The notes under the pieces: model-generated
The model's database searches: none
Told to the model about the DNA's origin: nothing
The model's input: the letters and a program-made list of their open reading frames with translations, nothing else
DNA from: Nitrosopumilus maritimus SCM1
GTDB lineage: Archaea; Thermoproteota; Nitrososphaeria; Nitrososphaerales; Nitrosopumilaceae
Direction: 5' to 3'
Length of the DNA: 32,000 bases
Assembly: GCF_000018465.1 (NCBI RefSeq)
Contig: NC_010085.1
Span: 270,001 to 302,000, forward strand
Shown here: piece after piece, positions 20,680-24,097 of the stretch
Layout: the number at the start of each line of letters is the position of its first letter
How positions within the stretch are numbered: position 1 is the stretch's first letter
Position numbers and translations under genes: made by a program

Positions 20680-21624
20680 ATGGTTTTAGAAGAAATACTG
20701 ACTATCTTTGTAGGGATTTTTACTGATTATACTCTCAGGTATGTTGCTCTTGGTTCTGCTATTTTAGGAATAACTAGTGGTGCTTTGGGATGTTTTACTG
20801 TTCTACGAAAACAGAGCTTGTTTGGGGATGCTTTAGCTCATGCTGCATTACCAGGTATTGGATTTGCGTATCTTTTTGCTGGAACAAAAGATTCACTGCT
20901 CTTGATGTTGGGAGCTGCAGTGTTTGCATGGTTTGGTGGAATTGTTACATTGACAATTACAAGTACTACAAGAATAAAGCAAGATGCAGCACTTGGAATA
21001 ACCCTCTCAGTTTTTTTCGGTCTTGGAATTGTTCTTCTTACATACTTGCAGAGTATTGGAGGTGCAAGTCAAGGTGGATTGGATAGATTTCTTTTTGGAC
21101 AAGCAGCTGCTTTGATAGAAACAGATATCATAAATCTAGGAATTTTGGCAGCAGGATGTTTTGTAGTTCTGATAATATTTTTCAAAGAGCTAAAAATTGC
21201 AACATTTGATAGTGTATTTGGACAAAGTTTAGGTTTTCCAACAAAATACTTTAGTGCATTATTAACATCTGTAATAGTTGTAGCAGTTGTTATTGGTCTG
21301 CATACTGTTGGTGTAGTCTTAATGGTTTCAATGCTTATAGCTCCTGCGGCTGCAGCAAGGCAATGGATATCTAGTTTGAAAAGTATGTTGATTCTTTCTG
21401 CTATATTTGGAGGTGTAAGTGGTGTGATTGGTTCTATGATTAGTAGTACTACAGAAGGAATGTCTACAGGCCCTGTTATTGTAATTACAATTACTACCAT
21501 ATTGGGCATCTCTCTTTTCTTTTCTCCAAAAAATGGATATCTTTTCCAATACATCCGTAAGAGAAAACAGCGTCAAAGTAACTTTAATGAAATCAATACT
21601 ATTTCAGGAGAAAACTCAAATTGA
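20680..21624 (+). CDS. metal ABC transporter permease (ABC-3 family, TroC/ZnuB-like)
   Basis: 314 aa, polytopic. GDALAHAALPGIG and LIAPAAAAR motifs typical of ABC-3 permeases. Confidence 0.85.
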   Translation: MVLEEILTIFVGIFTDYTLRYVALGSAILGITSGALGCFTVLRKQSLFGDALAHAALPGIGFAYLFAGTKDSLLLMLGAAVFAWFGGIVTLTITSTTRIKQDAALGITLSVFFGLGIVLLTYLQSIGGASQGGLDRFLFGQAAALIETDIINLGILAAGCFVVLIIFFKELKIATFDSVFGQSLGFPTKYFSALLTSVIVVAVVIGLHTVGVVLMVSMLIAPAAAARQWISSLKSMLILSAIFGGVSGVIGSMISSTTEGMSTGPVIVITITTILGISLFFSPKNGYLFQYIRKRKQRQSNFNEINTISGENSN

Positions 21625-22727
21625 TAGAGATATCTAATGATCTAATTATTATTGGAACTGCTGTACTAGTTGCAGCAAATTGTGCATCAATTGGAACTTT
21701 CTTAGTTTTAAGACAAATGGCCATGATGTCTGATGCCATTAGTCATGCTGTATTATTAGGAATAGTAATTGCCGTGTTTATGGTTGGAGGTCGAGAAACT
21801 ATTCCCGTAATAGTTGGAGGTGTACTGTCTGGTATCTTGACTGTTTCAATTGTAGAGATGCTTTATCGTACAGGTAAACTAAAACAAGACAGTTCCATTG
21901 GCATCGTCTTTCCATTTCTTTTTGCAATTGGTGTGATACTTGTCACACAAGCTGGTAATGTACACATTGATGCACAACATGTACTGTATGGTTCAATTGA
22001 ATTTGTACCATTTGACACACTATATCTTGATGAAATTAACATAGGTTCAAAATCTCTTTGGGTTCTTGGCGTTTTAGCAATTGCAAATATTTCTTTTATT
22101 GCAATTCTATACAAGGAACTAAAAATTAGCACTTTTGATGCTTCAGTTGCAGTAAGTGTTGGATTGATGCCCATGTTGATTCATTATTTGTTAATGATAA
22201 TGGTAGCTACAACTGCTGTTGTTGCTTTTGAATCAGTTGGTGCAATACTTGTCATTGCATTTTTCATAGTTCCTGCGTCTGGAGCTTATCTGTTAACCGA
22301 TAGATTATCTCATATGATAGCACTATCTGTAACACTGGGAACTATTAGTGCTATTGCAGGTTATCTGTTTGCAGTCTTACTTGATGTGTCGATAGCAGGC
22401 TCAATGGCCACAATTGCTGGTGCCATATTTGGATTAATCTGGGTATTTGCACCAAATCGAGGCTTGATTAGCAGATGGAGACGTATTACAAAACAAAGAT
22501 TCGAAATAGATTTGGGAATAGTTCTAACTTTCATTCAAGATGAGCTTAGCGCTAATCGTCAAGTATCCACTTCAACTTTATCGAATGCATTAGGGTGGAC
22601 AATAGATTACTCGAAAAAACTAAGTGAATTTATTCAAGAAAAAAAATTTATAGAAAAAGATGTTAGTGGAAATCTAATTCTAACAGTACTAGGACAAAAA
22701 AAGGCAAAGAACTACTCAACAACTTGA
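21621..22727 (+). CDS. metal ABC transporter permease (ABC-3 family, TroD-like) with ~75-aa C-terminal winged-helix-like extension
   Basis: 368 aa. TTG start in a TTGA overlap with the previous stop; the next ATG would delete TM1. SDAISHAVLLGI and FFIVPASGAY motifs. The tail after residue ~290 is soluble and HTH-like. Confidence 0.85.
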   Translation: MIEISNDLIIIGTAVLVAANCASIGTFLVLRQMAMMSDAISHAVLLGIVIAVFMVGGRETIPVIVGGVLSGILTVSIVEMLYRTGKLKQDSSIGIVFPFLFAIGVILVTQAGNVHIDAQHVLYGSIEFVPFDTLYLDEINIGSKSLWVLGVLAIANISFIAILYKELKISTFDASVAVSVGLMPMLIHYLLMIMVATTAVVAFESVGAILVIAFFIVPASGAYLLTDRLSHMIALSVTLGTISAIAGYLFAVLLDVSIAGSMATIAGAIFGLIWVFAPNRGLISRWRRITKQRFEIDLGIVLTFIQDELSANRQVSTSTLSNALGWTIDYSKKLSEFIQEKKFIEKDVSGNLILTVLGQKKAKNYSTT

Positions 22728-22744
22728 TATGATCTCTAGGTTTT

Positions 22745-24097
22745 TTATTCTGGTTCTGGATGAATTGTAATTACCGCATTTTTGATTTCTTCTCTTATAA
22801 TATGCTCAATCTCTGATGTCAAGTCGTGAACCTTTTCAATTGATAGTTCCTTATCAAATGAACAATCAATGTCAATTTTGAGTATATTTTTAAAGTTTAG
22901 TGAGACTATTCTTCCAATTTTCTTAATTTCAGAATATTTCTCTAAAATTATCTTTATTTTTTCCTCAGTAATTTTGTCTTCTAGATCAAAATTTTCTGGA
23001 ACTGTAACAAATGGTTCCAAGTGAATTGTGGCGTGTTCTATTTCTGGAATATTTTCTTGTATTTTCTGTTCTATAATTTCAGAGATTTTGTGAGCTAATG
23101 ATAGATTTATCTCTCTATCAACCATTACATGCAAATCTGAAAATGTTCTTCCTTTAGTTTTATGAGTACTTACATTGTGCACCCCTCTTACTCCTTCTAC
23201 ACTTTTTGCAATATCTAGAATTTTTGCATCTAATGGAACATCTTCCCAATTGGGCTCAAAATGGATTGTAATTGAAGCATTTGGAATTTTATTTTTGATA
23301 TTTTTTTCTACATTACTGCTTATCTCATGCGCTCTATCAAAACTTGTGTCTCCTCTTAATGATATTGTAACATCTGCAAAAGTTGTATCTCCCGAACGTC
23401 TCATTAGTATTGGATCTGCACCAATAACTCCTTGAGTTGATGTGGCAATGTCTCTAACATTTTTGACAAGTTCTGGTGAAATAATATCTGTTAAATCAAG
23501 AGCTGTTTTGTAAACTAGTTTGACACTAAGTACTGCTAATAATCCACCTAAAATTAATGCTGCAAAAAAGTCACCATGATACAAACCATAAGACACCAAA
23601 ACAATTCCAATAATTGCTACTAGTGTTGAACCAAGATCCATAAATGCATGATAGAAATCTGCTTTGAGAGTAGTACCTCCTATTTTTTGGATTGATCTTC
23701 TCAAAAGAATTATTCTAAATATGTCGACTCCTATTGTGTATAATCCGCCAATTATTGCAAACATTCCTGGTAGTATGTTTGGTGGTGGACTTTGAATTCT
23801 GTGAATTGACTCGTAAATGAAAAAACATGCAATCAGAAAAATTGCTATTCCTCCAATTAATCCCCCTAATGATTCAATTTTTCCATGGCCATAGGTATGT
23901 TCTGCATCTGGTGGTTTTATTGCCATTCTTGCAGCTAAAAGTAACACAAGAGTTACTACACTGTCAAGTAATGCATGAATACTGTCTGTGATAAGTGCCA
24001 AACTATTGGAAACAAGACCGAAAACCAATTCTACTAAAAATGCTGAAAAAATAGCCAAAAGTGAAATCTGTAATACCTTGGTTCTTTGTACAAACAT
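22745..24097 (-). CDS. cation diffusion facilitator (CDF) family metal efflux transporter with triplicated cytoplasmic domain
   Basis: 450 aa. TM2 ITDSIHALLD and TM5 FYHAFMDLG give an H-D/H-D site-A quartet. Three consecutive ~75-aa units end in ITIHFEP, ATIHLEP and ITIHPEP. Confidence 0.88.
   Translation of the reverse strand: MFVQRTKVLQISLLAIFSAFLVELVFGLVSNSLALITDSIHALLDSVVTLVLLLAARMAIKPPDAEHTYGHGKIESLGGLIGGIAIFLIACFFIYESIHRIQSPPPNILPGMFAIIGGLYTIGVDIFRIILLRRSIQKIGGTTLKADFYHAFMDLGSTLVAIIGIVLVSYGLYHGDFFAALILGGLLAVLSVKLVYKTALDLTDIISPELVKNVRDIATSTQGVIGADPILMRRSGDTTFADVTISLRGDTSFDRAHEISSNVEKNIKNKIPNASITIHFEPNWEDVPLDAKILDIAKSVEGVRGVHNVSTHKTKGRTFSDLHVMVDREINLSLAHKISEIIEQKIQENIPEIEHATIHLEPFVTVPENFDLEDKITEEKIKIILEKYSEIKKIGRIVSLNFKNILKIDIDCSFDKELSIEKVHDLTSEIEHIIREEIKNAVITIHPEPE

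Follow-up and report, generated by a model that had tools for sequence, protein, structure and literature searches.

A cation diffusion facilitator of Nitrosopumilus maritimus has three C-terminal domains, two of which may pair as a metal-bridged pseudo-dimer

In a 32,000-nucleotide stretch of the Nitrosopumilus maritimus SCM1 genome (contig NC_010085.1, positions 270,001 to 302,000; hereafter the window), we analysed a gene for a transporter in the superfamily of cation diffusion facilitators (CDFs) that has three cytoplasmic C-terminal domains (CTDs) in a single chain. CDF transporters, among them bacterial YiiP and CzcD, magnetosome MamM and MamB, plant MTPs and human ZnTs, are central to transition-metal homeostasis, and it is a matter of debate whether their cytoplasmic domain serves as an allosteric sensor or as a high-affinity dimer clamp. 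We propose, at a probability of roughly 55%, that the protein is a CDF antiporter of an ancient three-CTD subfamily in which the canonical domain (CTD1) pairs with its counterpart in the partner chain (CTD1′), and the two added domains, CTD2 and CTD3, form a metal-bridged pseudo-dimer. The YiiP-like geometry of this pseudo-dimer is suggested by covariation and remains provisional. For the N. maritimus gene itself, annotated as a generic cation-efflux pump, the result is modest. The main value lies in the relocation of metal sites within the family and in the covariation that points to a CTD2:CTD3 pseudo-dimer. Sites moved from the canonical CTD to two added and seemingly pairing CTDs would let the function of the CTD metal site be studied as a natural experiment.

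The whole transporter gene lies at 22745..24097 on the minus strand, stop codon included, and its open reading frame (ORF) translates into a 450-residue protein with one membrane domain and three CTDs. The Cation_efflux transmembrane domain (23492..24073, minus strand; residues 9-202) has six transmembrane helices and matches PF01545 with 161 bits against a cut-off of 26.6. Then follow, all on the minus strand, the canonical CTD1 (23249..23482; residues 206-283), the extra domain CTD2 (23009..23242; residues 286-363), a CTD2-CTD3 linker (22976..23008; residues 364-374) and the extra domain CTD3 (22748..22975; residues 375-450), which forms the C-terminal end of the protein. The original prediction, which concerned 22748-23476 (residues 208-450 of the same frame), held that this region consists of three tandem copies of the CDF C-terminal domain with a shared residue pattern. 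This is confirmed. Scanned singly against the Pfam family ZT_dimer (PF16916; gathering score 26.7 bits), the three units scored 66.7, 76.4 and 38.8 bits (E 1.9e-18, 1.7e-21 and 9.4e-10), and the whole protein gave three stretches with a total of 163.8 bits. Pairwise identity among the units is 24-31%, with an invariant His, an invariant Glu and an invariant IH-x-EP motif. In a six-frame search of the 1,645,259-bp single-contig genome, PF16916 matched three times, each time inside this gene.

An AlphaFold2 (AF2) model of the full monomer, based on an 81-sequence alignment, agreed with the domain calls at a mean predicted local distance difference test (pLDDT) of 88.3. The transmembrane helices were placed at residues 2-30, 33-59, 72-102, 112-138, 142-169 and 175-202, and three α-β-β-α-β modules at 208-283, 289-363 and 375-449, mostly with pLDDT above 90; the CTD2-CTD3 linker had pLDDT 66-73. 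CTD2 and CTD3 are thus not unrelated folds trailing a single genuine CTD, as both score above the Pfam cut-off and model as CTDs. All three units are confirmed as genuine CTD folds, and the protein is a CDF with three CTDs.

The CTD has a metallochaperone-like fold (PMC10710835), and in the established model CDFs are homodimeric metal/proton antiporters whose CTD binds metal at the dimer interface. In Shewanella YiiP, this binuclear zinc site C consists of C1 (H234, H250 and D287) and C2 (D287, H263 and H285), and it engages residues of both protomers (PMC8282283, PMC10617992). A phmmer alignment to E. coli YiiP (2qfi/3h90) equates CTD2 H307, H323, H336, H359 and E361 with YiiP H232, H248, H261, H283 and D285, and the set is complete in this domain. 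The corresponding residues are D228, T244, H257, H279 and E281 in CTD1, whose alignment to E. coli YiiP extends to YiiP residue 287, and G395, D411, H424, H446 and E448 in CTD3, where only the Gly at position 395 departs from the ligand set.

We scored conservation of these positions across 69 distant family members. In CTD2, positions 307 and 359 are His in 69/69, position 336 is His in 67/69, position 323 is His or Asp in 69/69 and position 361 is Glu or Asp in 69/69. CTD3 is nearly as strict, with His at 395 in 59/69 and at 411 in 58/69, H424 in 69/69, H446 in 68/69 and E448 in 69/69. Nitrosopumilaceae have G and D at 395 and 411, where the family usually has His, and C412 of CTD3 is conserved in 77/81 family members. 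In CTD1, position 228 is acidic in 54/69 and position 244 is mostly a non-ligand, with His at 257 in 16/69, His at 279 in 39/69 and Glu at 281 in 21/69; Nitrosopumilus CTD1 retains H257, H279 and E281, part of its own metal site. By this comparison, the YiiP site-C residues are near-invariant in CTD2 and CTD3 and decayed in CTD1 across the family, which places the metal sites mainly in the two added domains.

Covariation then indicated which domains may pair. We applied mean-field direct-coupling analysis to 309 triple-CTD sequences (effective number 172). A first pass was dominated by the indel-prone columns 364-374, 286-288, 302-305 and 440 and was discarded as a gap artefact. Once columns rich in gaps had been removed, G395-D411 ranked first, a pair that occupies both C1-site positions of CTD3, and the CTD1 ligand positions coupled with one another. 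Near the top were four pairs that link CTD2 with CTD3: H359-H424, H336-H446, E343-H446 and L360-I420. Because the ligand columns are near-invariant, we also counted ligand co-loss directly in 190 non-redundant sequences, with the events placed on a tree from which those columns had been left out. The β3 His of CTD2 and the α2 His of CTD3 (H359 and H424) were lost together six times with five origins (Fisher p 2.4e-8), and the reciprocal pair, the α2 His of CTD2 and the β3 His of CTD3 (H336 and H446), five times, also with five origins (Fisher p 2e-4). Every other combination of these four positions was co-lost once, with one origin, whether within a domain (336 with 359 in CTD2, Fisher p 0.43; 424 with 446 in CTD3, p 0.42) or between positions of the same type (336 with 424, α2/α2, p 0.32; 359 with 446, β3/β3, p 0.54). 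In CTD1, by comparison, the same-domain pair 257 and 279 was co-lost 39 times with 16 origins (Fisher p 1.3e-15). Cross pairs between CTD1 and CTD2 or between CTD1 and CTD3 showed no significant co-loss among the pairs listed. The replacements were RR, RD, KS, QD, KN and RY at 359/424 and FQ, RQ, WQ, NS and RE at 336/446, of which R/D and R/E could form salt bridges. The sequences with co-loss are mutually just 21-45% identical.

The α2 His of YiiP (H261) is said, in the 2009 work of Lu, Chai and Fu, to complete a site formed by the β3 His and Asp of the partner protomer. If so, the co-loss pattern would be explained by CTD1 pairing with CTD1′, as in YiiP, and by a CTD2:CTD3 pair that adopts that two-fold geometry too. 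The reciprocal cross co-loss also argues against simple head-to-tail stacking, and the covariation does not separate an intrachain from a chain-swapped CTD2:CTD3 pair. Spacing is in keeping with a pair as the added unit. Family-wide, the gap between CTD matches to profile hidden Markov models (HMMs) has a median of 12 residues between CTD2 and CTD3 (range 4-16) and of 3 residues between CTD1 and CTD2 (range 1-8). In the N. maritimus protein, the annotated CTD1-CTD2 gap is 2 residues (284-285), shorter than the CTD2-CTD3 linker. The longer CTD2-CTD3 linker and the CTD counts of one, three and five in the superfamily both fit a pair.

A mechanism can be proposed on this basis. Transport would be canonical, through the His-Asp/His-Asp site described below, with site-B control retained. 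Two metal-bridged sites would form between the added domains, one from CTD2 H359/E361 with CTD3 H424, and the other from CTD3 H446/E448 with CTD2 H336. Beneath the canonical CTD dimer, each tail would then hold a pseudo-dimer that is self-contained and clamped by metal, most likely with high affinity for cytoplasmic metal. Such a pseudo-dimer might stiffen the tail, report metal load to the transport domain via the 2-residue CTD1-CTD2 gap, or buffer metal, and it may have a regulatory effect on transport.

The original prediction named graded or multi-metal sensing as another possible outcome of the triple array. It took the domain to be a sensor of cytoplasmic metal, a premise that is disputed. 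In agreement with it, one view is that metal binding to the CTD activates transport (reviewed in PMC10710835). In cryo-EM and binding studies of Shewanella YiiP, on the other hand, site C has high affinity (33 nM) and chiefly stabilises the dimer, and site B, in the loop between the second and third transmembrane helices, controls the conformational switch (PMC10617992, PMC8282283). If the pseudo-dimer is real, the module would not be needed for holding the transporter dimer, so its conserved sites would reveal a role of site C beyond dimer stabilisation.

Several observations weigh against this proposal. In AF2, CTD2-CTD3 modelled alone reached pLDDT 91.2, with a predicted TM-score (pTM) of 0.54, and the relative packing of the two domains carried no confidence; the pTM of the full monomer was 0.61. 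An intramolecular pseudo-oligomer, which the original prediction had named as one possible outcome of the triple array, is favoured by the reciprocal CTD2-CTD3 ligand co-loss, as in the YiiP interface, and finds no fixed packing in the models. The co-loss evidence amounts to 5-6 events per cross pair, which is few, and a phylogeny-aware sign test had 4-6 independent pairs, too few for significance (p 0.25-0.5). On the donation of H261 by the partner protomer, the YiiP papers cited by accession here state only that both protomers contribute. Finally, an added CTD does not require a heterotypic partner. Two CDFs with complete C-termini, one from a Bdellovibrionales metagenome-assembled genome (MAG) (L084, 378 residues) and the other protein P0238 (386 residues), have two CTDs, the second of which scores between the CTD2 and CTD3 types. 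These proteins may be survivors of an intermediate stage or secondary losses.

The two-CTD proteins would sit more easily with an arrangement in which all three domains pair with their own kind. Homotypic dimers CTD1:CTD1′, CTD2:CTD2′ and CTD3:CTD3′ would be stacked into a long cytoplasmic stalk, with YiiP-like metal sites in three tiers, giving a stronger dimer clamp or a response over a wider metal range. This would extend the known CDF dimer in the simplest way. All units keep the YiiP interface segments, namely the loop preceding the α2 His and the IH-x-EP strand, and the lack of fixed intramolecular CTD2-CTD3 packing in AF2 would be natural. However, stacked homotypic dimers predict co-loss of the α2 and β3 His within domains of the same type, as is found in CTD1 (39 events), and CTD2 and CTD3 show one such event each. 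It is the cross pairs that were co-lost instead, six and five times from five origins each. The linker lengths (3 and 12 residues) and the CTD counts also fit pairs better than tiers. We regard the stacked arrangement as possible and rather unlikely.

More doubtful is that CTD2 and CTD3 have no fixed partner at all and act as flexibly tethered, chaperone-like metal buffers that feed the transport pathway or work in trans. The metallochaperone-like fold of the CTD (PMC10710835) and the low pTM of CTD2-CTD3 are consistent with this idea. So is the occurrence of the triple array as a soluble protein of 256 residues encoded beside a P-type ATPase gene, by which it can evidently act away from a CDF membrane domain. 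Free tethering would leave the reciprocal co-loss of CTD2 and CTD3 ligands without explanation, and likewise the strict conservation of the α2 His, the residue that in YiiP reportedly completes the site of the partner. That the added units are a decaying internal duplication or a gene-calling artefact without function can be discounted, in spite of the weakest Pfam score being that of CTD3 (38.8 bits): the frame is open, length is held at 443-461 residues in all 120 nearest homologues, the layout is common to at least 13 phyla, identity among close relatives is about equal for the three domains (CTD1 78%, CTD2 76%, CTD3 81%) and the CTD2 and CTD3 ligand residues are nearly invariant.

A broader, more tentative form of the CTD2:CTD3 pseudo-dimer brings in these soluble, uncharacterised proteins. 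They occur in other families of the class Nitrososphaeria (L027:1164-1931, minus strand; L030:769-1536, plus strand), have only three ZT_dimer domains, in the order c1-c2-c3 like the N. maritimus protein, and lack a membrane domain. Each is encoded directly upstream of an adjoining MgtA-type P-type ATPase gene (E1-E2_ATPase and Cation_ATPase_N domains). A 653-residue CDF from a JGI metagenome (P0160) has five ZT_dimer domains, confirmed by Pfam, whose units read c1-c2-c3-c2 and then c3 or c2. This order looks like a second duplication of the CTD2-CTD3 pair. We think it conceivable, with somewhat less than even chances, that CTD2-CTD3 is an intramolecular, metal-bridged and portable sensing module, fused to CDFs once (three CTDs) or twice (five CTDs) and set free as a soluble protein in partnership with MgtA-type P-type ATPases. 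A module of this kind would connect the tail of CDFs with a soluble triple-CTD protein whose gene neighbours that of a magnesium-pump-type ATPase, and it would offer a clean system for the sensor-versus-structural debate on the CDF cytoplasmic domain.

The history of the three units was examined with a maximum-likelihood tree of 84 units, comprising three from each of 25 proteins and the CTDs of nine single-CTD CDFs, including E. coli YiiP. Units grouped by position and not by organism. The 50 rows of CTD2 and CTD3 together made up a single clade (support 82/52), monophyly held for 24 of the 25 CTD2 units (95/78), and CTD1 units intermixed with the CTDs of single-CTD CDFs, YiiP among them. Support was moderate because the units are short. 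In agreement, position-specific c1, c2 and c3 HMMs built without any Nitrosopumilaceae sequence recognised the N. maritimus units in order, with best scores of 65.7 (c1), 58.3 (c2) and 49.1 (c3), and single-CTD CDFs scored best as c1. CTD1 is thus orthologous to the lone CTD found in ordinary CDFs, and CTD2 and CTD3 are sister domains whose addition preceded the spread of the family across Bacteria and Archaea. The simplest history would have a canonical CDF acquire a single additional CTD that duplicated later. An exclusively pairwise addition of CTDs was also considered, and this rule is weakened by the genuine two-CTD CDFs.

The original prediction implied that the triple layout is a rarity. 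Instead, the N. maritimus protein is nothing unusual within a triple-CTD subfamily that is large, old and widespread, and that is defined here by a Cation_efflux domain followed by three CTDs matching the c1, c2 and c3 profiles in order. The 120 nearest homologues are at least 86% identical, and those bearing a source name come from Nitrosopumilus, Nitrosopumilaceae or a Marine Group I thaumarchaeote. The CTD2-CTD3 tandem was found in 107/151 genomes of the same class and in 70/80 genomes of the same family, a subset of the 151; in other families of the class, identity is 33-38% and the frames measure about 450 residues. An exhaustive phmmer search of 1.84 billion cluster representatives (50% identity) returned 16,450 matches at E<=1e-3, 295 of them at E<=1e-30. 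Among the best 150 of the 16,450 representatives, scored with a purpose-built CTD HMM, 122 had three CTDs and one had five, and the remainder were fragments or ordinary CDFs of about 288 residues. A species-level locus scan, with one genome per species and a 14-sequence alignment, matched at least 600 loci, and 75 of the best 80, which were examined, had three CTDs.

These loci came from archaea (Nitrosopumilaceae and Nitrosotalea of the Nitrososphaerota, Bathyarchaeia and Desulfurococcales) and from many Acidobacteriota as well as from Alphaproteobacteria, Actinomycetota, Gemmatimonas (Gemmatimonadota), Ignavibacteriota, Bacteroidota, Verrucomicrobiota, Myxococcota, Elusimicrobiota and Chloroflexota. 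The Alphaproteobacteria included Bradyrhizobium sp. McL0615, Bosea eneae CCUG 43111 and Rhodoplanes, the first two genera being cultured. Source names of distant clusters added Thermoproteota, Hodarchaeota, Abditibacteriales and Armatimonadota. In all, the layout spans at least 13 phyla of Bacteria and Archaea, and the subfamily is widespread in soil and marine microbes, including ammonia-oxidising archaea relevant to the nitrogen cycle.

The number of CTDs varies in other ways as well. The N. maritimus genome also encodes two near-identical CDFs of 205 and 206 residues that have the Cation_efflux domain and no CTD; their genes lie outside the window (G000:C1:1057094-1057711, that is L005:1438-2055, plus strand; G000:C1:1256918-1257538, that is L006:1480-2100, minus strand). 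One genome thus holds both extremes, with zero and with three CTDs. A 436-residue frame elsewhere (L038, G006:C1) is a CDF in which one CTD is followed by a differing C-terminal domain of about 120 residues. A protein of 613 residues (P0152) has two CTDs with about 230 residues of unassigned sequence between them, and one of 614 residues (P0261) has three CTDs that start about 150 residues later than usual, with extra sequence upstream of the array.

In the literature we found no description of a CDF with more than one CTD per chain, although most subscription journals were not covered and this absence is not proof; where CDF papers speak of two CTDs, they mean the two protomers. The copy of the PDB that was searched held no multi-CTD CDF, and none of its chains covers more than one CTD. 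The CTD matches are visible in precomputed Pfam annotation, with the proteins generically named as cation-efflux pumps. As far as we have seen, the multi-CTD architecture is therefore detectable yet apparently unstudied.

Membership of the CDF superfamily is secure, with 223 bits against a cut-off of 82.35 for TIGR01297. None of the NCBIfam equivalogs was reached, whether FieF/YiiP (NF050169, 173 bits against 420; NF007064, 151 against 447), MamM/MamB (NF033615 and NF033616, 139 and 112 bits against 350) or ZitB/Cdf31/MntE (NF002923, 66 against 408; NF052602, 117 against 460; NF052621, 116 against 500), and DmeF was also far under its cut-off. Therefore the substrate cannot be transferred by orthology, a further point against the proposal. 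The transport-site motifs are H41-x3-D45 on the second transmembrane helix and H150-x3-D154 on the fifth, a His-Asp/His-Asp site, conserved across 81 family members in 74 (H41), 81 (D45), 77 (H150) and 81 (D154). The loop residues D64, H67 and H71 match YiiP site B, and each is kept in 81/81. A preference for zinc over cadmium is reported where His replaces Asp at the CDF transport site (PMC8000985), and the His-Asp/His-Asp site is the sole hint to the substrate. From this site, Zn2+ would be the likeliest, with Co2+, Fe2+ and Mn2+ also possible. By analogy with YiiP, the protein would function as a divalent-metal/proton antiporter, and a homodimer is expected.

YiiP/FieF of E. coli and S. oneidensis (PDB 2qfi, 3h90, 5vrf, 8f6e) is the closest characterised system and shares the six-helix Cation_efflux domain and the metallochaperone-like CTD. 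It gave the best PDB sequence match (E 3e-27 over residues 14-283 of the N. maritimus protein), and S. oneidensis YiiP (5vrf_A) the best fold match, with a TM-score of 0.78 normalised to the target over 283 columns. The site-B triad is conserved as in YiiP, and the YiiP site-C set is found in CTD2 and largely in CTD3. The differences are that YiiP has one CTD and not three; that its transport site consists of three Asp and one His (PMC10617992) in contrast to His-Asp/His-Asp; and that its site C lies in the canonical CTD, whereas in the triple-CTD family the site is largely lost from CTD1 and survives in the added domains. CTD2 also matched the CTDs of MamM, MamB, CzrB and T. maritima TM0876 (PDB 6qek, 3w5x, 5ho5, 3byp, 2zzt/6vda) at E 3.6e-5 to 3e-3, and CTD3 weakly matched TM0876 (6vda/2zzt; E 0.28). 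These CTDs share the α-β-β-α-β fold with metal ligands at the dimer interface. However, they are single homodimerising domains, whereas the N. maritimus protein has two such domains per chain that apparently pair mutually. That the superfamily has no fixed number of CTDs is plain from the CTD-less CDFs, which have none where this protein has three.

Within the window, the transporter gene is convergent with two metal-importer permease genes of the ABC-3 (TroC/TroD) type (20680..22727, plus strand; Pfam ABC-3 220.6 and 150 bits). The stop codons of the TroD-type permease and the CDF are 17 bp apart (22725-22747), and the gap includes six consecutive T when read on the plus strand. This adjacency is not conserved in distant family members. 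On the other side, a very large secreted protein is encoded divergently from the CDF gene, and an A+T-rich ATATAG element lies within about 25 bases upstream of the CDF ATG, a position that suggests a short leader. A Pfam tally of 135 ORFs flanking family members revealed nothing metal-related that is conserved, and hence no support for a substrate, which again counts against the proposal; the synteny was only lineage-specific (OsmC, Rotamase_2 and a UbiE methyltransferase). Without a conserved metal-related neighbour, the triple-CTD CDF gene would work alone. Outside the window, adjoining the second CTD-less CDF gene, is a gene (L006:73-1401, minus strand) for a 442-residue protein with an N-terminal hydrophobic segment, an extremely methionine-rich sequence with long M/N/G/Q runs, and no significant Pfam match; this Met-rich protein may be secreted and metal-binding, perhaps for copper. 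In a Nitrosotenuis MAG, a transposase gene of the IS605 OrfB/TnpB type (OrfB_IS605 and Cas12f1-like TNB; L042:1793-2965, plus strand) lies directly upstream of the triple-CTD CDF gene.

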